A stretch of 64,000 bases of DNA from Clostridiales bacterium. Its GTDB lineage: Bacteria > Bacillota > Clostridia > Lachnospirales > JAQSXR01. A program made the translations under genes and the position numbers. A model generated the notes under the pieces. It had not been told where the DNA came from. It saw only the letters and a program-made list of their open reading frames with translations, and ran no database searches. Below, in pieces: positions 2,880-49,373 of the stretch. Positions within the stretch are counted from its first letter, which is position 1; each line of letters starts with the position of its first letter. The stretch is from the NCBI GenBank assembly GCA_029256575.1, contig JAQSXR010000006.1:10202-74201 (forward strand), written 5' to 3'.

Positions 2880-3640
2880 TATAACTCAACCTCCTCAGCC
2901 TTAAATACTGGTCCATCTTTACATACTCGTTTACGAACTATATTACCTTCGTTATCCTTTGTTTTACATACGCAACCTAAGCAAGCTCCAATTCCACAAG
3001 CCATTTTTTCCTCTACTGAAAGTTGTGCATCTACCTTATTCGCGATTGCATAATCTTTCACTGCTTTTAGCATCGGTTTTGGTCCGCAAGCATATATATC
3101 ATCCATCTTAATTGACAGAGTTCTTAATATATCTACAACATTTCCTTTTGTTCCAGCTGAACCATCCTCAGTAGCAATATATACTTTACCATATTTTGAT
3201 AACTCTTCTACCAAAAATGTTTCTGATCGATATCCTAAAATAATATGTTTATCTCCTTGAAGTTGCTTTGCTAATTCTAACATTGGAGGAATTCCGATCC
3301 CACCGGCGATTAATACTGAAGTTCTATTGTTTAATGTAAATCCGTTTCCAAGAGGCCCGAGTATTGTAATTTTATCATCTTTATTGAAATGTGAAATTTC
3401 ATTCGTTCCTCCTCCTACAACTCGATAGACGATTCTAATTCTTCCTTGTACTTCGTCTATTTCGCAAATGCTGATTGGTCTTGGGAGTAATCTTGAATCC
3501 TGATTACAATACACTCCAATAAATTGCCCTGGTTGAGCTGAGTTTGCGATTTCTTCTTCCGAAAGCCACAGATCAAATATACCACTTGAAATTTCTACTT
3601 GGCTATATACCGTTGCCACTTTTTTTTGCATTTTATTCAT
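2879..3640 (-). CDS. pyrK: Dihydroorotate dehydrogenase 1B, electron-transfer subunit
   Basis: 253 aa. FAD/NAD-binding fold plus a C-terminal CGIGACLGCVC 2Fe-2S cysteine cluster. 1-nt overlap with pyrD. Confidence 0.9.
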   Translation of the reverse strand: MNKMQKKVATVYSQVEISSGIFDLWLSEEEIANSAQPGQFIGVYCNQDSRLLPRPISICEIDEVQGRIRIVYRVVGGGTNEISHFNKDDKITILGPLGNGFTLNNRTSVLIAGGIGIPPMLELAKQLQGDKHIILGYRSETFLVEELSKYGKVYIATEDGSAGTKGNVVDILRTLSIKMDDIYACGPKPMLKAVKDYAIANKVDAQLSVEEKMACGIGACLGCVCKTKDNEGNIVRKRVCKDGPVFKAEEVEL

Positions 3641-17650: not shown

Positions 17651-17762
17651 TCCCCTATCTCTTAATCTCCTATTTCTAATCTCCTATTTCCTTTCTCCTA
17701 TCTCCTATTTCCTATTTCCTATTTCTTATTTCCTATTTCCTATTTCCTATTTCCTATCTCCA
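17651..17762. repeat. Heptanucleotide tandem repeat (TCCTATT on plus, AGGAAAT/AGGAGAT on minus), about 16 units
   Basis: Direct reading: ...ctcctatttcctatttcctatttcttatttcctatttcctatttcctatttcctatctcc... Confidence 0.85.
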
Positions 17763-17865
17763 TATTATATCAACCATAAAAAAATAGCAACACTTTGTCG
17801 AACGTATGTTCTATAAAGTGTCGACATAATTCTACATAAAATATTAATTCCACGATGTATTGTTT

Positions 17866-25236: not shown

Positions 25237-25833
25237 TTATCGAATTCTTACTTGATTACTAACTTGAAAATTATGTTCGTTTGACGCTAAATAAACAATT
25301 CCTTCAATTAACCCAATAAAAGCTGGTATAAATGTCCAGGAAAACAAAAGATATATGACCCCTAACCCAACTTTACCCAAATAAAATTTATGAATACCAA
25401 TACCACCAAAAAATATAGCAAGAATTCCAGCTACTGCTTTACTCTTTATCGGCCAAGCTGGATTAATTCCATTAACCCAATTAGCTTGATATGGTGACTG
25501 TCCTTGATACATCGGTTGACCCTGGTAAGGCGGCTGGCCTTGATATGGTGGCTGGCCTTGGTATGGTGGCTGACCTTGATATGGTGGTTGGCCTTGATAC
25601 GGTGCTTGCCCTTGATACGGTACTTGCCCTTGATATGGTGGTTGCCCTTGATATGGTGCTTGCCCTTGATACGGTACTTGCCCTGGATATTGTGGTTGGG
25701 CTTGATATGGTGCTGCTTGGCCTGGATATGGTGCTTGTGTTATTTGTGTAGAAACTATTTCTCCACAATATTTACACTCCGAAACACCTGGACTTAATGG
25801 TCCCCCACATTGAGGGCATTGTAAACCTGCCAT
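25237..25833 (-). CDS. Zinc-ribbon / P-Y-Q-G-Q repeat / TM2-domain membrane protein
   Basis: 198 aa. N-terminal CPQCG...CKYCG. About 14 P(P/A/V)YQGQ repeats. C-terminal TM2-like segment GILAIFFGGIGIHKFYLGK. Confidence 0.75.
   Translation of the reverse strand: MAGLQCPQCGGPLSPGVSECKYCGEIVSTQITQAPYPGQAAPYQAQPQYPGQVPYQGQAPYQGQPPYQGQVPYQGQAPYQGQPPYQGQPPYQGQPPYQGQPPYQGQPMYQGQSPYQANWVNGINPAWPIKSKAVAGILAIFFGGIGIHKFYLGKVGLGVIYLLFSWTFIPAFIGLIEGIVYLASNEHNFQVSNQVRIR
25497..25735 (-). repeat. In-frame 18-bp coding tandem repeat (encodes PPYQGQ / APYQGQ / VPYQGQ)
   Basis: Repeated ccttgatatggtggYtgRcc units. They also generate three spurious overlapping ORFs in the ORF track. Confidence 0.85.
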
Positions 25834-29426: not shown

Positions 29427-31382
29427 ATGAATCTTTGGAGTATAATCGTAAAAACTTTGCCATGGAATATTAAACAATACGAATTAGCCGTCAGTTTAGT
29501 CAACGAATGGAAGCAAAATGGGTACATTCATAAAACATGTCGTGAGATGCTAGAATTAGATGATATTGTTATTATTTTATTTTACAATATCTTGGAAGAA
29601 ACAGAATCTTTGGATAGTCCAGTTCAACACAATCCCGATTCTTCTTGGATGTTTGAATCAGATTTTTGTTTTATTAATATACGCGCAACCGGAATCGGTG
29701 AGAAATTTGGAGACTTAATACAAGCATCAAAGCTTTTACCAATCATTCGGGCAAAAGGAATTCATTTAGGACCTTTCACAAGTTATGATTTTGGTACAAT
29801 ATATGCGGTAACAAGCACTAAAACAATATCAAAAAATGTAGTAAATCATTTACTGTGGGAAAAGGGCATTTGTCCTGACGAGCAATTAAGGGCATTTGTA
29901 CAAGCAACTCATATGTTAGGCAAATGTGTCGGTTTTGATTTAGAACCTCATGTCGCACAATTTGCAAAACCTGTTTTAGAACATCCTGAGTATTTTAGAT
30001 GGATCTCACTCGATGAAAATCATAAACTCAGAGATTCACTTTCACAAGAAAGACAGCTTTGCGAGGAACCTCAAGAAGAAATACATAATCAAGTGAACCA
30101 AATTGTTCACAATTGCCTAATTAGAGAAAAAATAAAAACGATAGAATCAGAATTTGGCGATAGTCCAGAAGATTATAATAAAAAAGAAAATATATATTAT
30201 GACTTAATCGGTGAACTTATTCGAAAGGGCTATTGGACGATACCCTCTCATACTTGGAATGGCGTTGGAATTCCAGCGTATGACGGTTATTATTTAAAAG
30301 ACAATTATGCTAAATTTATATATTTAGATCAATTCGGTAATGATCAAAGCCAATATGCCTATGGAATTGTAACTCCGTATAATTTTTACCGTAATGTACC
30401 TGTAAATCGTTTATGTGATAAATCCACCAACCTTGAACAAAACAAAAAAGTAGTAGAATATTACAGCAATATTTTTCTTTATTGGCGCAATGAATTTAAA
30501 TTTGATTTTGTAAGACATGATTCTCTTGATCATATATTTGATTCCATAGATGAATCGGGCAACCCGCTCACTGATAGAATAACCCCTTCTATTTTATCCT
30601 ACTGCAACAAAAAATCTCGTTCCTCTAAGAAACCTTATATTGGAAACCTAGCCGAACGAATGGGCTATGAATATGAACAATATAAAAATATTGGCTTTGA
30701 CTTATTATTAGGTAATGAAGCTATGGATACAATTAGTAGTGATTTTATGATGAATCAATTTAAGATCAATGAAGAATTAACAACCTATAACTCAAATGAA
30801 CCGAAAGCTTCCTGTGTATTTGCTACGGATACTCATGATACCGGAAATCCACATATGTGGGGACAACCTTTGGTCGAAGTCGCTGGGGTTGATGGGATGC
30901 GGTTAAGACAATTCGTTTCGCGATTCATGCCACTTGGTTCAACTTGTCGTCCTAAGTATGAAGTTATCGGAGCACAAGACCTGTCATTTGGTTTGTATCA
31001 TAGTAACATAAAGAATCAAAACTTGAATTGGGTTGGTAATCAATATTTTAATCAGGTTTACCATTACATCGAAGATGTCTTTGAATCAGTAAGGGAGACT
31101 ATGCACAAAGGTATTCTGTTAGCTCATAAAGTTGACTCAAATTATAGTTGGTGGATAATCAGATATAATAACCAAATATTAGTCCCTGTTATTTCAACTG
31201 AAAACGGGACTGGTACTGATTACCTTCAAATTAATTTAAAGGGAATTGTTGAGAATATAGAAAAAATAGAAGTACATGATTTTTATAAGTGTGAAAAATT
31301 TGAAGTACATGATTCATATGACGAAATAAAAATATATAATTTACAGCATAGACAGTGCCTACTATATCAAATTCAAATCTAA
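29427..31382 (+). CDS. Divergent GH13-like (clan GH-H) enzyme, specificity unknown
   Basis: Start at ATG 29427, after GGGAG. Candidate GH13 regions: I VGFDLEPH, II FDFVRHDSLDH, III GNLAERMG, IV FATDTHDTG. The HPEYF motif after region I recalls GlgE-type maltosyltransferases. Confidence 0.55.
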   Translation: MNLWSIIVKTLPWNIKQYELAVSLVNEWKQNGYIHKTCREMLELDDIVIILFYNILEETESLDSPVQHNPDSSWMFESDFCFINIRATGIGEKFGDLIQASKLLPIIRAKGIHLGPFTSYDFGTIYAVTSTKTISKNVVNHLLWEKGICPDEQLRAFVQATHMLGKCVGFDLEPHVAQFAKPVLEHPEYFRWISLDENHKLRDSLSQERQLCEEPQEEIHNQVNQIVHNCLIREKIKTIESEFGDSPEDYNKKENIYYDLIGELIRKGYWTIPSHTWNGVGIPAYDGYYLKDNYAKFIYLDQFGNDQSQYAYGIVTPYNFYRNVPVNRLCDKSTNLEQNKKVVEYYSNIFLYWRNEFKFDFVRHDSLDHIFDSIDESGNPLTDRITPSILSYCNKKSRSSKKPYIGNLAERMGYEYEQYKNIGFDLLLGNEAMDTISSDFMMNQFKINEELTTYNSNEPKASCVFATDTHDTGNPHMWGQPLVEVAGVDGMRLRQFVSRFMPLGSTCRPKYEVIGAQDLSFGLYHSNIKNQNLNWVGNQYFNQVYHYIEDVFESVRETMHKGILLAHKVDSNYSWWIIRYNNQILVPVISTENGTGTDYLQINLKGIVENIEKIEVHDFYKCEKFEVHDSYDEIKIYNLQHRQCLLYQIQI

Positions 31383-31430
31383 CATAACATAACATAACAT
31401 AACATAACATAACATAACATAACATAACAT
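31381..31430. repeat. (AACAT)10 pentanucleotide repeat starting inside the stop codon of the GH13-like gene
   Basis: Direct reading: ten perfect aacat units. Confidence 0.9.
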
Positions 31431-36308: not shown

Positions 36309-36548
36309 TCCTTTTTATATTATTATTTTTATGATTAATATACTTTTTATAAGTATACGCATCCTTATTTAAAAAAATACATAAAAAAGACATAGAACGT
36401 ATAGTATTCTATGTCTTTTACATTTATTCTCTTTTGTTATTTAGTCTTTAGTGTTGCTATTTATTCCTATTTACTTGATGTTTTCTCTTAACTCTATAAT
36501 CTTTTATTTACTTTTTCCTATTATTTACTTTTTCCTGTTCTATTTTTC

Positions 36549-38507
36549 CTATTCTTTATCTACTTTTATTTCCTTAATTTCTTTTGTAGCTATTTCTTCT
36601 AATATTTCTGATAAGAACTGTTCGATTGATTTTGAACCTTCATCTCCATTGTATCTGCTTCTTACTGAAATAGTACCTTCTTCTTCTTCCTTTTGTCCAA
36701 CTACTACCATATAAGGTACTTTATCAAGTCTTGCTTCACGAATTTTGTAGCCTGTTTTTTCAGCTCTTTCATCGATTGTAACTTTTATACCTTTATTACG
36801 AAGAGTATTTCTAACTTCATTTGCATAATCATGGTACTTCTCTGATATCGGAAGCACTCTAACTTGTTCTGGACACAACCAAGTAGGGAATAGTCCTGCA
36901 TATTTTTCTATTAATGTTGCAAGAGTTCTTTCATAGCAGCCTACTGATGTTCTATGAATAATAAACGGACGTTTCTTTTCACCATTCTTATCAATGTAGA
37001 ACATATCAAAACGATCTGCTAATGCAAAATCCAATTGAATTGTTATCATTGTGTCTTCTTTACCATAAACATTCTTAGTTTGAATATCTAGTTTCGGGCC
37101 ATAAAAAGCTGCTTCGCCTTCTTCTTCAGTAAAATTAACTCCAAGATGAATTAGAATTTCTCTCATTCTATCTTGTGTCTTTTCCCATTGCTCAGAATCT
37201 CCTAGATATTTTTGCTTGTTATTTGGATCCCATTTTGAGAATTGGTATGTTACATCATTTTCAAGGCCTAATGTCTTTAAGCAATACATCGCTAAATCAA
37301 GACAACCTTTAAATTCCTCTTCTACTTGCTCTGGAGTAACGATTAAATGTCCTTCTGAAATAGTAAACTGTCTAACGCGAGTTAAACCGTGCATTTCACC
37401 AGAATCTTCGTTTCTAAATAATGTAGAAGTCTCACCATAACGACATGGAAGATCTCTATAACTCTTTTGACTTTGTTTATATACAAAATATTGGAATGGA
37501 CATGTCATCGGGCGTAACGCAAATACTTCTGATTTTTCATCATTTTCATCACCAAGTACAAACATACCTTCTTTATAATGTCCCCAATGGTCAGAAATAA
37601 CATAAAGATCCTTCTTTGCCATAAGAGGTGTTTTTGTTCTCATGTATCCACGTTTTTCTTCTTCATCTTCAATCCATCTTTGTAAAGTTTGAATCATCAT
37701 AGCGCCTTTTGGCATCATTAACGGAAGTCCTTGACCTATTACATCAACAGTTGCAAATAATTCCATTTCACGTCCAAGCTTATTATGATCACGTTTTTTA
37801 GCATCTTCTAATTTTACTATGTGTTCTTCAAGATCCGCATTTTTTGTATAAGCTGTTCCATAGATACGAGCTAGCATTGGTCTTTTACTATCCCCTCTCC
37901 AATATGCTCCTGAGGAAGATAATAATTTAAAAGCTTTGATAGTCTTTGTACTCAATAAATGAGGTCCGGCACATAGGTCAGTAAAATCTCCTTGTTTGTA
38001 GAAAGAGATAACAGCATCTTCTGGAAGATCTTGAATCAATTCAACCTTATATGGTTCTCCTTGCTCTTCCATGAATTTAATTGCTTCCGCTCTTGGTAAT
38101 GTATAGTTTTCAATTTTAATATCTTCTTTTACAATTTTCTTCATCTCAGCTTCTATTTTATCTAAGTCTTCTCTAGAGAAAGACTCAGCATCAAAATCAT
38201 AGTAGAAACCTTCTTCAATCGCTGGCCCAATTGCAAGTTTTGCATTTGGATATAATCTCTTAACTGCTTGTGCGAGTACATGGGAAGCTGTATGTCTAAA
38301 TGCTTTTCTTCCTTCCGCATCATTAAATGTCAAAATGCTTAATTCTACATCTTTATTGATAATTGTTCTAAGGTCTACAACCTTTCCATCTACAACAGCT
38401 GCTGTTGCAGCTCTTCCAAGTCCTTCGCTAATGTCTTTTGCTATATCAAGCACAGACATTTCTTGTTGATATTCTTTAACTGAACCATCTTTTAATGTAA
38501 TCTTCAT
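36549..38507 (-). CDS. thrS: Threonine--tRNA ligase
   Basis: 652 aa. TGS domain (MKITLKDGS), the second additional domain, and a class II core (FRNEDSGEMHGLTRVRQF). Confidence 0.95.
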   Translation of the reverse strand: MKITLKDGSVKEYQQEMSVLDIAKDISEGLGRAATAAVVDGKVVDLRTIINKDVELSILTFNDAEGRKAFRHTASHVLAQAVKRLYPNAKLAIGPAIEEGFYYDFDAESFSREDLDKIEAEMKKIVKEDIKIENYTLPRAEAIKFMEEQGEPYKVELIQDLPEDAVISFYKQGDFTDLCAGPHLLSTKTIKAFKLLSSSGAYWRGDSKRPMLARIYGTAYTKNADLEEHIVKLEDAKKRDHNKLGREMELFATVDVIGQGLPLMMPKGAMMIQTLQRWIEDEEEKRGYMRTKTPLMAKKDLYVISDHWGHYKEGMFVLGDENDEKSEVFALRPMTCPFQYFVYKQSQKSYRDLPCRYGETSTLFRNEDSGEMHGLTRVRQFTISEGHLIVTPEQVEEEFKGCLDLAMYCLKTLGLENDVTYQFSKWDPNNKQKYLGDSEQWEKTQDRMREILIHLGVNFTEEEGEAAFYGPKLDIQTKNVYGKEDTMITIQLDFALADRFDMFYIDKNGEKKRPFIIHRTSVGCYERTLATLIEKYAGLFPTWLCPEQVRVLPISEKYHDYANEVRNTLRNKGIKVTIDERAEKTGYKIREARLDKVPYMVVVGQKEEEEGTISVRSRYNGDEGSKSIEQFLSEILEEIATKEIKEIKVDKE

Positions 38508-38603
38508 TTTAAGCTCTCCTTTTATAATTGTTTTCTATTTTTCAAATTTACTTTGTTATTAATAATACATTTTTACTTAATCTTTGTACTAAATTTAGAT
38601 AAC

Positions 38604-38843
38604 AAAAAAACCCGTCCTTCTCTATATATAATTAATATAGAAAGGGACGAGTTATAAATTACCCGCGGTTCCACCCTGATTGCACTTTGTGCCACTCAGT
38701 CGATTGTAACGTAATCAACGGACTTTATTAGAGTCACTCAGAGGTAGTTTTGGGATGTTTCCAATTAGAAATACTCTCAGCTAATGTATTTCATCTCTGA
38801 AATTTTTCACATCTTACTCTTCTCATCAACGTGTTATCTTATT
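38604..38843 (-). promoter_or_regulatory. T-box riboswitch leader (threonine specifier)
   Basis: Minus strand: T-box sequence AATCAGGGTGGAACCGCGGG (38662-38681). Terminator CTCGTCCCTTTCT...AGAAGGACGGG plus T7 (38604-38651). AGAGA and GCUGAGAG stem I elements. Thr codons ACU/ACC at 38743-38748 in the candidate specifier loop. Confidence 0.85.
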
Positions 38844-38849
38844 TCCTTC

Positions 38850-38877
38850 ATTATAACACCCTCAAAGACTTTGTCAA
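38850..38877 (-). promoter_or_regulatory. Sigma-A promoter for the thrS leader
   Basis: Minus strand: TTGACA, 16 nt, TATAAT. Confidence 0.5.
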
Positions 38878-38930
38878 GACCAAACCAAATGGAAAGTTTC
38901 TTTGTATAAAGCAAATGAAAATTTCATCGT

Positions 38931-39854: not shown

Positions 39855-39966
39855 CTGAATCCCCCTTACCATACTATACAATTGTTATCTATATTGTAAT
39901 ATAATAATCTTTTTTATATTTTTTACATGATATATATCGGCATTTATTACCATTTATTTATATGTA

Positions 39967-40052
39967 ATATCAAAGTAATCATTTCTTATTTAATACCAAA
40001 GTAATCACGTCTTATTTAATACCAAAGTAATCTTTTCTTATTAAAACCAAAG
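39967..40052. repeat. Tandem repeat of about 26-28 bp, 3.3 units (accaaagtaatcNNNtcttatttaat)
   Basis: Direct reading of three successive similar units. Confidence 0.7.
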
Positions 40053-42712: not shown

Positions 42713-42829
42713 TAGCAAAAAAAGAATGGTAATATGTAACAAGTTAAAATCAGCAAAAGAATGAATGGTAATATGTAACAAGTTAAATTCAGCAAAAGAA
42801 AAAGGATGGTAATATGGAACAATTTAAAG
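42713..42829 (+). repeat. Tandem triplication (about 38 bp) of the MATE gene 5' end (RBS plus start region)
   Basis: Units at 42713-42749, 42750-42788 and 42789-42829. The third unit contains the real RBS and ATG. Units 1 and 2 read ...ggtaatATGTAAcaagttaaa. Confidence 0.8.
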
Positions 42830-44234: not shown

Positions 44235-44278
44235 AAAACCCCTAGATTAGTCTTAACTATTCTAGGGGTTTTATTTTA
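44235..44278 (+). terminator. Rho-independent terminator of the MATE gene
   Basis: aaaacccctaga-(loop)-tctaggggtttt followed by a T-run. Confidence 0.7.
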
Positions 44279-44280
44279 GT

Positions 44281-44379
44281 ATTTATTTGATGTTTATTTG
44301 ATGTTTATTTGATGTTTATTTGATATTTATTTGATATTTATTTGATATTTATTCGATGTTTATTCGATGTTTATTCGAT
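44281..44379. repeat. 11-bp tandem repeat, 9 units (RTTTATTYGAT)
   Basis: Direct reading. Three sub-variants occur in blocks (gtttatttgat, atttatttgat, gtttattcgat). Confidence 0.9.
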
Positions 44380-44420
44380 ATTAATTTAAATTATTTATCT
44401 ATCTATTAGCTTGCTATTAC

Positions 44421-46198: not shown

Positions 46199-46243
46199 AA
46201 TAAAACACAAGAAAAATCAAATTGATTTTTCTTGTGTTTTATT
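46199..46243. terminator. Perfect 21-bp-stem palindrome (bidirectional terminator candidate)
   Basis: aataaaacacaagaaaaatca-aat-tgatttttcttgtgttttatt. Confidence 0.6.
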
Positions 46244-46286: not shown

Positions 46287-46354
46287 TCTCTTTTTAATAT
46301 TCCTTATTAATACTCTCTTTTTAATATTCCTTATTAATACTCTCTTTTTAATAC
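46287..46354. repeat. 27-bp tandem repeat, 2.5 units (tctctttttaatattccttattaatac)
   Basis: Direct reading. Two perfect units plus a partial third. Confidence 0.85.
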
Positions 46355-46366
46355 TCACTTTAACAC

Positions 46367-46549
46367 TTATTCTTTCTTTACCTCTTTTTGCCTTTTCGTC
46401 ATCAGCCCTCCAATACGACCACTTTCTTTTGCCGTAAGTGACTTCCAACCACCTCGTTCAACTTTATCCATAAGTCCAAGTTCTTCAGCAATTTCAAACT
46501 TCATTTTCTCTTTCTTAATTTCCTCAGGGGTCTTAATCTTTTCCGCCAT
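46367..46549 (-). CDS. Alpha/beta-type small acid-soluble spore protein (SASP)-like
   Basis: About 60 aa. The KFEIAEELGL...GG...SGRIGGLMTKR pattern matches the alpha/beta SASP signature. ATG 46549 follows AGGAG plus 8 nt. Confidence 0.6.
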   Translation of the reverse strand: MAEKIKTPEEIKKEKMKFEIAEELGLMDKVERGGWKSLTAKESGRIGGLMTKRQKEVKKE

Positions 46550-46580
46550 ATACACCACTCCTTTTTTAATAATACCATTA

Positions 46581-46609
46581 AAGTATGTCCATAATATGGC
46601 AATGTATAC
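46581..46609 (-). promoter_or_regulatory. Forespore (sigma-G/F-like) promoter candidate for the SASP gene
   Basis: Minus strand: GTATA, 17 nt, CATACTT. This resembles the sigma-G consensus (GHATR, 17-18 nt, CATNNTA). Confidence 0.4.
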
Positions 46610-46694
46610 CCCTACCCAATGTTTTTAATCTTTTGTTTTTAATCTTTTTGTTATTAATTTCCCTTTAATTACCCCCCCAAGAAAAACATATAAT

Positions 46695-46826
46695 ATTTTA
46701 TCTTTATGTTTAACATAATGTTTTATCTTTATGTTTTATCTTTATGTTTTATCTTTATGTTTTATCTTTATGTTTTATCTTTATGTTGTATCTTTATGTT
46801 GTATCTTTATGTTGTATCTTTATGTT
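46695..46826. repeat. 13-bp tandem repeat, about 10 units (ttttatctttatg / ttgtatctttatg)
   Basis: The atg of each unit falls at 46718, 46731, 46744, 46757, 46770, 46783, 46796, 46809 and 46822, an exact 13-nt period. Confidence 0.9.
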
Positions 46827-46858
46827 TTCCGTTTTTCTTGGGGCCCCATTATCCAATT

Positions 46859-47108
46859 GTTTGCTTCTCCCAAATAGTACGGTAGCTATTTACAATACAT
46901 TATGAGAAATGCCGTATATCTTATCGAATACAAATCGCGCCAAGTGGTTGGAATGGGGGTGTTTGAGCAAACAGACCAATCTAATATACAGTCCACAAGC
47001 GAGTTCCCCATTCCAACCACTGTTCTAAGCGATTTTTATTCCATTAGATATACGAGCATTTCGAATCCGTATTGCAAATAGCTACCGTACTATTCGGGAG
47101 AAGCAAAC
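46859..47108. repeat. 250-bp imperfect palindrome (two inverted arms of about 100 bp around a 47-nt centre)
   Basis: Arm 46859-46958 pairs with arm 47006-47108. The outer 40 positions are complementary except for two A/C positions. The apical stem is 16 bp and perfect (agtggttggaatgggg / ccccattccaaccact). Confidence 0.85.
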
Positions 47109-47157
47109 CCATCTCCCTTTAATTCCCCCAAGAAAAACGAATGTTTGTCTTTATGTT

Positions 47158-49233
47158 TTATCTTCTTCTCTTCTTAATCAAAAGCCCTAATAAAATCCCA
47201 GATGCAATTGCTCCCACTCCTAAAGCGGTTAGTTTTGCTTTTTTATTCATTTGCATTTTAACTTGTTGTTCTTTTACCAAAACCATTGCAGAAATAGGAG
47301 CAACATATACTTTTCCATTCGTTACAGTTGCTAATGGTGTAACTCCTGCAAAATCTTCGTTAATATAAGCTGTCCAGCGTCCTGATGGCAAAGTAAATTC
47401 TTTTGCCACTGTATTAGGATTATAAATTACTATAATGCTATCTGCTGTTTCATCCTTCATCTTTGCATCGATCGTAAATGCTACCGTTTTAGCTGGAACA
47501 TTATTTAGAAATCTTATTCTTTCTTGCACATCTGTTGCAGATTCCATTCTAAGAGCTGGATGAGCTTTTCTAAAAGCAATTAATCCCTTGTAGTAATTAA
47601 ATATTGAAATATTGCTATATTTTTCGTCCCATTTAATGCTATTAATTGAATCAGGTGAAACATAGCTATTCTCATCAAACTTAGTTCTTGATTCATCTAC
47701 TGGTTTTGATCTTAACATTTCTTCTCCAGCTTGCATAAATGGTATCCCTTGTGATGTTAATACTATAGCTGCAGATAACTTAGTCATTTTAACTCTATCT
47801 TCATAGCTCGACTCAGGTGTTGAAATATTTAATTTATCCCACAAAGTTAAGTTATCATGTGCAGAAACATAATTTACAGCTTGAGAAGGCTCTTTTGCCC
47901 AAGGTCTATCCGAATACTTAACCTTAGAGTAATCGATTTGATCATGTGCGATTGCTCCTACTACTCCAAACTTGATTGATTCAACTAAATCCTTTTCACC
48001 TGAAACAAATCCCTTTTCATCTTCATAAAAAACATGTCCTTTTACTGCATCTCTCATATCATCACTAAATGCAGCAATACCAGGCATTAAGTAAGTATTT
48101 GATTTTACAGCTCTGAGATGTTCAGGAAGTGGAGAGTCTCCACCTGTCCATCCTTCCCCATACAATATAATTGAAGGATCAACTTTATCAAGAGCTTTTC
48201 TGATTCCATTCATAGTTTCTATATCATGAATACCCATTAAGTCAAAACGAAATCCGTCTACTTTATATTCTGTAGCCCAGTAAACCAATGAATCCGTGAT
48301 CATTTTTCTAACCATAAGTCTTTCTGATGCAGTTTCATTTCCACAAGCAGAAGCATCCGTAAAAATACCGTTCTTCGTTCTATAATAGTAGTTTGGTACT
48401 GTCTTATTAAAATCTGAATCAAGTGCTGTAAATGTATGATTATATACCACATCCATTACTACTCTTATACCATTTTTATGAAGTCCTTGAACCATTTTCT
48501 TGAACTCTTTTACTCTTACTGCACCATTCGTTGGATCCGTTGAGTAGGAGCCTTCTGGAATATTATAATTTTGTGGATCATAACCCCAATTAAATTTATT
48601 TTCTTCTAATTTTGATTCATCAATTGTTTTAAAATCAAAAGAAGGTAGTAGATGTAAGTGTGTTATCCCTAATTCTTTTATATGATCAATACCTGTTTTT
48701 TGCCCATAACTATTTGTTGTTCCCTCTTCAATAATCCCTAAAAATTTACCTTTATTTATGATGTCAGAGCTTTTATCCATTGACATGTCTCTTACATGTA
48801 ATTCATACAATACTGCATCTGTCATTTTAACAAAAGGAGGTTTTACATCATTTTGCCAAGAATCCGGATTTGTGGATAATAGATCAATTACCATTGTTCT
48901 TTTCCCATTTACACCAGACGTTCTTCCGTATATATCAGCTGCCTCATTTGATTTACCTTCAACTGTTACTAAATAAGTATAGTATACACCGTTTAAATCT
49001 TTATTTACTTCCGCAACCCATGTACCTTTTACATCTTGCTCCATTGATACTATTTCAATAAGGTTGTTTCCTGAACCTTCTTTATATAAATTTAATGAAA
49101 CTTCAGTTGCAGTAGGTGCCCAAACTCTAAATTTTGTTTTTTCTTTTGTATATATAGATCCTAGATCATTTCCATCATAATAATACTTCTTATTGAATTC
49201 TTCACTTGAAAATATTTCTTCTTGTAGTAGCAT
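47158..49233 (-). CDS. Type I pullulanase (CBM48 + GH13) lacking a signal peptide but retaining a C-terminal TM anchor
   Basis: Start at ATG 49233, after AAGAGG plus 8 nt. Motifs VMDVVYNHT, DGFRFDLMG, YGEGW and YVSAHDN. C-terminus LGVGAIASGILLGLLIKKRRR. Confidence 0.85.
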   Translation of the reverse strand: MLLQEEIFSSEEFNKKYYYDGNDLGSIYTKEKTKFRVWAPTATEVSLNLYKEGSGNNLIEIVSMEQDVKGTWVAEVNKDLNGVYYTYLVTVEGKSNEAADIYGRTSGVNGKRTMVIDLLSTNPDSWQNDVKPPFVKMTDAVLYELHVRDMSMDKSSDIINKGKFLGIIEEGTTNSYGQKTGIDHIKELGITHLHLLPSFDFKTIDESKLEENKFNWGYDPQNYNIPEGSYSTDPTNGAVRVKEFKKMVQGLHKNGIRVVMDVVYNHTFTALDSDFNKTVPNYYYRTKNGIFTDASACGNETASERLMVRKMITDSLVYWATEYKVDGFRFDLMGIHDIETMNGIRKALDKVDPSIILYGEGWTGGDSPLPEHLRAVKSNTYLMPGIAAFSDDMRDAVKGHVFYEDEKGFVSGEKDLVESIKFGVVGAIAHDQIDYSKVKYSDRPWAKEPSQAVNYVSAHDNLTLWDKLNISTPESSYEDRVKMTKLSAAIVLTSQGIPFMQAGEEMLRSKPVDESRTKFDENSYVSPDSINSIKWDEKYSNISIFNYYKGLIAFRKAHPALRMESATDVQERIRFLNNVPAKTVAFTIDAKMKDETADSIIVIYNPNTVAKEFTLPSGRWTAYINEDFAGVTPLATVTNGKVYVAPISAMVLVKEQQVKMQMNKKAKLTALGVGAIASGILLGLLIKKRRR

Positions 49234-49373
49234 TTTATTTACCTCTTTCTTCTTATAGTACAGGGATGCCTCAAAATAGCATATGTATATATCCTGCCAT
49301 TCTTGGCTTGAATACATCAAGTTATCTTGAGACATCCCTTCTTAAATATTTAGTTATTATTTTTTAGTTATTA

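Follow-up and report, generated by a model that had tools for sequence, protein, structure and literature searches.

The ERIC/IRU, RUP and bcr1 repeats are multi-copy imperfect palindromes of 100-160 bp that occupy transcribed intergenic regions in both orientations, some of them with target duplications, and the stable hairpins that they form in RNA can change the stability of the flanking mRNA; RUP is mobilised by IS630-Spn1. Hairpins of 200-300 nt are known from the single-strand origins of the ssoA type, which are imperfect and strand-specific, are active as one single strand only, lie on rolling-circle plasmids near the rep gene and the double-strand origin, and carry the conserved motifs RS-B and CS-6 (TAGCGT). 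Here, we describe a rod-like hairpin element of 250 nt that lies between a type I pullulanase gene and the gene of an alpha/beta-type small acid-soluble spore protein (SASP) in a 64-kb stretch of clostridial DNA, which at its whole length is called the window below. The element is a member of a small, previously undescribed hairpin family with copies at two unrelated loci. Its hairpin is kept by compensatory and wobble substitutions, and pairing is best in the strand that is co-oriented with the genes on either side. The kind to which it belongs, dispersed palindromic intergenic elements that form hairpins in transcripts, is known, while the family itself is new; to our knowledge, none of ERIC/IRU, RUP and bcr1 shares sequence with it. 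Compared with the known palindromic repeat families, the element is about twice as long, and it is low in copy number and diverged, yet 98% of the cells at its predicted base pairs are paired. It also differs from these families in having strand-specific wobble pairing and no target duplication.

Comparison with individual families makes these differences clearer. The Correia repeat enclosed elements of Neisseria (CREE, or nemis) resemble the present element in being non-coding and intergenic, in having terminal inverted repeats, in their dispersal to unrelated loci and in forming a hairpin when inside an mRNA, which for our element is predicted from the fold. Transcribed Correia hairpins bind RNase III and alter the expression of neighboring genes (PMC2649163). 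CREE, however, measure 104-157 bp, occur in more than 100 copies per genome, duplicate a TA target, can create promoters and carry an IHF-binding site, whereas the present element is known from two loci, has no target duplication, is palindromic over about 100 nt per arm and displays no sequence similarity to CREE. In the small mobile repeats (SMRs) of Haloquadratum walsbyi, the terminal inverted repeats correspond to no known transposon; SMRs leave no target duplication, and they move by an unknown mechanism (PMC3119063). Our element likewise has terminal inverted repeats, lacks a target duplication and is too short to encode a transposase. In contrast to the archaeal SMRs, which are 80-110 bp long, exist in some 50 nearly identical copies and prefer to insert into other mobile elements, it is bacterial, 250 nt long, low-copy and diverged, and its structure covaries.

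Palindrome-associated transposable elements (PATEs), derived from IS200/IS605, are defined by the lack of terminal inverted repeats and by short palindromes close to the ends (PMC3119063). They share with the present element a non-coding sequence, the association with a palindrome, the missing target duplication and, plausibly, a strand-specific single-stranded DNA (ssDNA) form. Since PATEs are without terminal inverted repeats, this class does not fit an element that is one continuous hairpin and starts and ends with its own inverted repeats, and it was ruled out. A plasmid single-strand origin of the ssoA type was set aside as well, given the core chromosomal context (AddAB, two pullulanases, SASP, Hsp33, ThrRS), the lack of any plasmid match and the absence of TAGCG. 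Likewise, a textbook miniature inverted-repeat transposable element (MITE) would agree with the terminal inverted repeats and the non-coding 250-nt size, but there is no target-site duplication, no matching insertion sequence (IS) was found by blastn against plasmids and phages or by exact-pattern scans, and only two loci are known. A preliminary description of this DNA had left three options: a structured noncoding RNA, a foldback element of the MITE or PATE type, and a single-strand origin or recombination site. The present analysis supports a structured, strand-specific single-stranded molecule, and does not support an ordinary MITE, a PATE or a plasmid-type single-strand origin.

An inverted-repeat search resolves the element into an imperfect palindrome of three helices (Table 1), the same helices and terminal loop that had been described before. 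In the minus strand, RNA folding yields -139.3 kcal/mol as against -56.6 +/- 4.8 kcal/mol for 200 shuffles (z -17.2), and the plus strand reaches -128.4 kcal/mol (z -17.4). DNA energy parameters give a similar picture, with -81.7 kcal/mol for the minus and -75.6 kcal/mol for the plus strand. Mismatches are clustered: the outer and apical helices together have 2 among 56 positions, the middle part 15 among 48. On the plus strand, both mismatches of the outer helix are A/C, which in the minus sense turns into G:U, as the preliminary description had stated. The G+C enrichment noted there is also confirmed: the G+C fraction is 0.41-0.42 within the element, only 0.17-0.27 in the intergenic DNA on its two sides, and about 0.33-0.38 in neighboring coding DNA. 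The 59-codon open reading frame (ORF) reported inside the element does exist, but it lies at 46902-47081 rather than at 46903-47082, and it is not the sole one, as a second ORF of 44 codons with a GTG start occupies 46886-47020 on the minus strand.

Table 1. Coordinates of the hairpin element and of the features around it (positions in the window; empty cells, no strand assigned)
Feature	Position	Strand	Remarks
Core rod-like hairpin element	46859-47108	-	250 nt; part homologous to L041:760-1013; minus strand (gene sense) folds better
Outer helix, 3' arm in minus sense	46859-46898	-	Partner 47069-47108; 40 nt, 95% complementary (inverted-repeat search)
Outer helix, 5' arm in minus sense	47069-47108	-	Partner 46859-46898
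Middle interrupted helix, one arm	46913-46938	-	Partner 47029-47054; 26 nt, 88%; contains conserved A.A and A.G oppositions
Middle interrupted helix, partner arm	47029-47054	-	Partner 46913-46938
Apical 16-bp helix, one arm	46943-46958	-	Partner 47006-47021; 100% complementary
Apical helix, partner arm	47006-47021	-	Partner 46943-46958
Terminal loop, 47 nt	46959-47005	-	Ends conserved, centre variable between copies
Type I pullulanase gene	47158-49335	-	Upstream of element; element 50 nt beyond stop codon, same sense
Alpha/beta-type SASP gene	46367-46549	-	Downstream of element; PF00269; start codon 310 nt beyond element
SASP promoter and Shine-Dalgarno region	46560-46615	-	Conserved with L027; far edge of the ~540-bp lineage-specific block 46616-47157
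Outer inverted repeat CGTTTTTCTTGGGG	46830-46843		Perfect, 14 bp; partner 47126-47139; hairpin reaches ~310 nt at window locus only
Outer inverted repeat partner CCCCAAGAAAAACG	47126-47139		Also within direct-repeat copy B
Direct-repeat copy A	46657-46711		~55 bp, 78% identical to 47111-47158; with copy B brackets tandem array and palindrome
Direct-repeat copy B	47111-47158		Abuts pullulanase stop codon
13-bp tandem array TTTTATCTTTATG	46696-46828		10.3 copies; neighbor of element, outside conserved element

The second copy emerged when the six-frame translation of the element was used as a phmmer query against 1.84 billion representative proteins. Among these, one ORF gave a meaningful match (P0246, E 2e-8). 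It matches two reading frames of the window element in succession, with the frame broken by indels, which indicates a spurious ORF that overlies homologous DNA. The underlying contig (L041, 1226 bp, sister sample 3300042923) carries, at 760-1013, a palindrome of 254 nt that is built in the same way, with a 47-nt loop enclosed by arms of 43, 26 and 16 nt, of which the outer ones are 88% complementary. The two elements are 82% identical. Neither pullulanase nor SASP neighbors this copy; it lies 342 nt upstream of a TRAM/RumA-like methyltransferase gene and in the same sense, so that each copy is co-oriented with the gene that follows it and lies at a similar distance from the start of that gene (310 nt in the window). 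The 14-bp outer inverted repeat and the 55-bp direct repeat that surround the window element are absent from L041 and are thus features of the window locus, not of the element. Both copies share the conserved cores GTAGCTATTTRCAATAC, AATCGCGCCAAGTG and CACTGTTCTAAGCGA. In the terminal loop, 30 of 47 positions are identical. A coding sequence was rejected, as reading frames are not conserved between the copies and there are no protein homologues; a word-indexed protein search with a six-frame chimera found none.

The edges of the two copies can be compared directly. The junctions read ...CCAATT|element|CCATCT... in the window and ...CACCAA|element|TCAACC... in L041. Their flanks display only loose C-rich similarities, displaced by 4-6 nt, with no identical direct repeat at both ends. 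On the plus strand, both copies are flanked by C-rich stretches, CCCCA..CCAA on one side and yCAwCyCC on the other (window 46844-46858 and 47109-47117; L041:745-759 and 1014-1022). These common flanks hint that the conserved element may extend 10-15 nt past the palindrome.

For the analysis of covariation, the alignment comprised only two divergent sequences and one single-base variant, and RNAalifold predicted a consensus structure of 98 pairs on its gene-sense (minus) orientation. At these pairs, 98.3% of cells are paired. Eleven pairs have changed on both sides and still pair, nine of them in the main rod and eight outside the ambiguously aligned terminal columns, while three pairs show one-sided changes to wobble and three to four are broken. 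Five of the pairs changed on both sides between the window and L041 belong to the outer helix. The apical helix contributes three compensatory pairs and one wobble change, with 100% of its cells paired. A stepwise exchange is seen at alignment columns 50/205 in the middle helix, where the window has A-U, the sister samples L026 and L028 have G-U and L041 has G-C. Both copies retain the A.A and A.G oppositions. No covariation measure was reached by any of 500 shuffles, and controls with slid partners had 0-2 double changes. As changes affect about 14% of the stem columns, we roughly estimate that chance would yield well under one compensatory pair. The preliminary description had named a lack of conservation and covariation among relatives as part of an outcome that would refute its interpretation; instead, a homologue exists and its helices covary.

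These results bear directly on another explanation, a functionless local accident in which a template switch produced an inverted duplication in a repeat-prone spacer that has since decayed neutrally. Products of slippage do abound here (13-bp and 15-bp arrays, the 55-bp direct repeat, the 14-bp inverted repeat), the copy number of arrays varies between sister samples, and the relative L027 has an unrelated palindrome at a comparable position. The homologous copy at an unrelated locus and the nine compensatory pairs, set against the rough chance estimate and the controls given above, effectively refute this explanation. The mismatches, too, would be expected to be uniform under neutral decay and are instead clustered.

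The wobble pairs single out one of the two strands. Five G:U pairs form in gene sense and none in the opposite sense of the window element; in L041, the counts are nine and one. The L041 element accordingly folds to -139.7 kcal/mol in gene sense vs -106.5 kcal/mol in the opposite sense. When ancestral and lineage-specific wobble events are counted together, about ten favor the gene sense and one the other (our own binomial p ~0.01). The argument for a minus-strand molecule, formerly built on the two G:U pairs of the outer helix, is strengthened by these roughly ten independent wobble pairs vs one. Internal loops are no better conserved than helices (20 of 23 vs 154 of 179 ungapped positions), and the expectation that they would be was rejected. 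With a variable loop centre and internal loops conserved like helices, the rod itself appears as the conserved feature. Taken together, the covariation and the one-strand G:U pairs point at a structure maintained in one specific single strand, which may be either RNA or ssDNA of the lagging-strand template.

The second of these forms defines a rival explanation. The hairpin might act as ssDNA on the lagging-strand template, as substrate of a HUH/Y1 transposase or of a RAYT-like or IS110-like recombinase encoded elsewhere, or as a priming signal like that of single-strand origins, and an activity of this kind would account for the movement of the element as well as for the upkeep of its palindrome. 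The favored gene-sense strand is indeed the lagging-strand template, as judged from the negative GC skew of the plus strand. In DNA, G.T is the least destabilising mismatch, and the folds with DNA parameters given above also favor the minus strand. The missing target-site duplication would fit a duplication-free mode of transposition, and the haloarchaeal SMRs likewise combine terminal inverted repeats with the absence of target duplications and of a known transposase (PMC3119063). On the other hand, no HUH, TnpA, TnpB or recombinase gene was found among 12 nearby ORFs scanned against Pfam or in the Pfam-tagged extra loci, most ORFs of the window being unscanned. The hairpins of IS200/IS605 ends and of PATEs are short and subterminal, and terminal inverted repeats are missing there, in contrast to a single hairpin of 250 nt that ends in such repeats. 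The element resembles neither plasmids nor phages, and its 47-nt loop disfavors cruciform extrusion from double-stranded DNA. We regard an ssDNA element as distinctly improbable.

The explanation that we tentatively favor, at somewhat less than an even chance, is a low-copy dispersed palindromic element of about 250 nt in the intergenic DNA of an uncultured Lachnospiraceae-like clostridial lineage, co-transcribed as a long hairpin within mRNA. The element would have reached its two loci by some form of mobility, as ERIC, Correia and the haloarchaeal small mobile repeats do, and would be read through from the upstream gene. We infer this read-through because no canonical U-tract terminator separates the upstream gene from the element at either locus. 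Within the transcript, the RNA duplex of about 100 bp might act like transcribed repeats of the Correia or ERIC type, possibly by stopping 3' exonucleases, by offering a site to RNase III or by partly blocking read-through. Any of these roles would uncouple the vegetative pullulanase operon from the forespore-specific SASP gene.

Several observations weigh against this dispersed, co-transcribed element. The RNA step is deduced from the lack of an intervening terminator. The two known loci possibly belong to different genomes, neither copy has a target-site duplication, and no transposase or parent IS with matching ends was found by blastn against plasmids and phages, by exact-pattern scans or among 12 nearby ORFs. 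As internal loops are no better conserved than helices, there is no sign of a loop that binds a ligand or a protein. Because the gene-sense strand is the lagging-strand template, an ssDNA hairpin or a C-to-T bias could yield part of the wobble asymmetry. In addition, the consensus structure was predicted on the minus-sense alignment, which favors the minus strand. Gene conversion from arm to arm could mimic compensatory change, although it would not explain the wobble asymmetry.

No second copy was found in the 64-kb window, in agreement with the preliminary description, nor in the flanking loci around both genes at the window ends (same, sister and Logan samples, reaching about 20 kb beyond the window). 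nhmmer with the family alignment gave no third locus over 568 kb. Using both copies, blastn against plasmids and phages returned no match. Scans of viral, genome and metagenome collections with the exact 18-mer ATAGTACGGTAGCTATTT produced only single chance hits; as the two copies differ within this 18-mer (GTACGG vs GTTCTG), the scans of genomes and metagenomes were weak tests. The conserved 17-mer GTAGCTATTTRCAATAC gave only single chance hits in the viral collection, and the 16-mer of the apical stem only chance hits in viral contigs. The many dispersed copies with target duplications that would have marked an ordinary MITE, an outcome considered in the preliminary description, were not seen in these searches: only two loci are known, neither of them with a target-site duplication, and no parent IS was found. 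An inverton was also considered, as a 14-bp repeat flanks the window element, and was rejected, since three assemblies agree in orientation and L041 lacks the repeat; a Pfam scan of 10 nearby ORFs revealed no recombinase.

As an alternative to a dispersed element, the hairpin could be a dedicated structured noncoding RNA that acts in cis between co-directional genes, either terminating transcription or insulating the genes independently of a U-tract, or serving as a processing signal, with the copies being paralogues or xenologues under purifying selection. Covarying helices, the conserved A.A and A.G non-canonical oppositions and wobble pairs in gene sense would all agree with it. The low copy number and 82% identity, together with pairing in 98% of cells, are unlike a recent burst of transposition, and the assemblies continue straight across the element. 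The two copies agree in orientation and lie at similar distances from the downstream gene, no other terminator is present at either locus, and G+C enrichment is typical of structured RNAs in AT-rich genomes (PMC11109978). Several points oppose this explanation. The element matches no Rfam family, and its near-perfect duplex of 100 bp shows little of the complexity in junctions and loops that marks known functional RNAs. Conservation is lacking at the centre of the apical loop, the flanking genes are functionally unlinked (pullulanase and SASP at one locus, RumA-like at the other), and the orthologous site in L027 is without the element. We consider a dedicated RNA unlikely, though deserving of serious weight. 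For the element in both the window and L041, no Rfam family, including 6S RNA, HEARO, OLE and ROOL, reached the gathering threshold; the best match was a plant miRNA model with 20 bits vs a threshold of 85 (E 0.43), and there was no other. A sigma-70 promoter inside the element was set aside because it matches only 9 of 12 positions.

The position of the hairpin would also be compatible with an oversized intrinsic terminator of the pullulanase operon, as it lies 50 nt beyond the stop codon in gene sense and no other terminator precedes the SASP gene. However, no U-tract follows the hairpin in either copy: the minus sense continues with AAUUGGAUAAUGGGG in the window and with UUGGUGGGGUUGG in L041, and a terminator scan reports none. 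Canonical U-tract terminators do occur elsewhere in the window, e.g., at 46200-46242 and 36385-36419, and the stem of the element has about ten times the length of a terminator stem. An intrinsic terminator, oversized or otherwise, is highly improbable. The terminator at 46200-46242, downstream of the SASP gene, is a perfect palindrome of 20 bp with the stem motif CAAGAAAAA / TTTTTCTTG, and this motif recurs around the element, in the three copies of CCCCAAGAAAAAC, as well as at the middle of the palindrome in L027.

Orthologous loci offer a view of the element over short and longer distances. The same locus is present in the two sister samples L026 and L028, and the element has the same orientation in all three assemblies. 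Relative to the window, the sisters display one single-nucleotide polymorphism (SNP) in the 250-nt element, 8 instead of 10 copies of the 13-mer array and one extra G in a poly-G tract. This tract (minus sense, window 46672-46678) lies in direct-repeat copy A and numbers seven G in the window and eight in both sisters. With an overall divergence of about 0.2% between the sister strains, the single SNP is uninformative about constraint.

L027 is the nearest different relative (pullulanase 73% identical) and is without the element. Its SASP promoter and Shine-Dalgarno region begin directly at the pullulanase stop codon, an arrangement that makes a block of about 540 bp, 46616-47157, specific to the lineage of the window. 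The L027 SASP ORF is reduced to a stub of about nine codons. A relative in which the pullulanase gene and the SASP region are adjacent and the SASP ORF is a stub fits the idea that the hairpin would uncouple the two genes, as a single anecdote. Within L027:3290-3715, the cut-down SASP ORF is followed by a 122-nt palindrome at 3457-3578 (31-nt arms, 94% complementary) with 21/22-bp tandem repeats on its flanks; despite the comparable position, this palindrome has no homology to the element family. Gene order differs in L029, and L030 and L040 are too short or broken at tandem repeats for a comparison of the orthologous locus. In L030:60-170 (methyltransferase 83% identical), the SASP gene is followed by a hairpin whose arms, judged by eye from the sequence, measure about 35 bp. 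Unusually long terminator-like hairpins may be common in this clade.

A broader claim can be formulated that spans both single-stranded forms. The family might represent a new class of long, rod-like structured nucleic acid of about 250 nt, with a near-continuous duplex of some 100 bp that is selected in the gene-sense strand. Such a class would comprise either a U-tract-free RNA that punctuates operons, e.g., a double-stranded RNA (dsRNA) insulator or an RNase III site by which a forespore gene is protected against vegetative read-through, or the ssDNA form of a hairpin element moved by an enzyme. We lean against this claim, while granting it an appreciable chance. If the element acts as RNA, it would add a very long dsRNA-like hairpin to the operon-separating devices of Firmicutes, with a testable case in a vegetative sugar-use operon that reads through into the gene of a DNA-binding spore protein. 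If it acts as ssDNA, it would hint at hairpin-dependent mobility in Clostridia with neither a target duplication nor a known enzyme. Either way, covariation and strand-specific wobble became visible from just two loci. Repeat-based pipelines would skip such an element because of its low copy number, and pipelines that search for RNAs in GC-rich intergenic regions would leave it unnamed for lack of homologues (PMC11109978). As the family is known so far from one uncultured lineage in three sister metagenomes, its wider importance is modest for now.

In reverse complement, the window corresponds to a section of an 819-kb contig of JGI metagenome 3300042922. Genes around the element belong to the core chromosome and comprise AddAB, two type I pullulanases, the alpha/beta-type SASP, a methyltransferase, Hsp33, MatE and ThrRS; the best pullulanase homologues, at about 60% identity, come from Lachnospiraceae (Herbinix, Mobilitalea). 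No mobility genes of any kind were found by Pfam scan among the 12 nearby ORFs or in the Pfam-tagged extra loci, with the same coverage of the window as above.

Short-period tandem repeats with units of 5-39 bp are common in the intergenic spacers of this genome. In the window, they occupy 44270-44387, 46287-46353, 46620-46658 and 46696-46828 as well as 42719-42828, 39961-40052, 17654-17766 and 31380-31430. Both copies of the element sit among such repeats, which we treat as a background property of the genome because they are present in many spacers. At least two arrays differ in copy number between sister samples, namely the 13-mer array, with 10 or 8 copies, and an 11-mer array, which has one extra unit in L039. 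The short-read Logan contig L040 breaks at tandem repeats. Repetition also extends into coding sequence: the ORF at 25237-25833 contains an 18-bp repeat at 25485-25737 (units of 18, 36 and 54 bp; about 13 copies), resulting in a repetitive protein region. At the gathering threshold, a Rfam scan of the whole 64 kb called only four tRNAs and no T-box leader upstream of the ThrRS gene (36549-38507; region 38508-38930). The same upstream region contains a perfect sigma-70-like promoter at 38850-38877.

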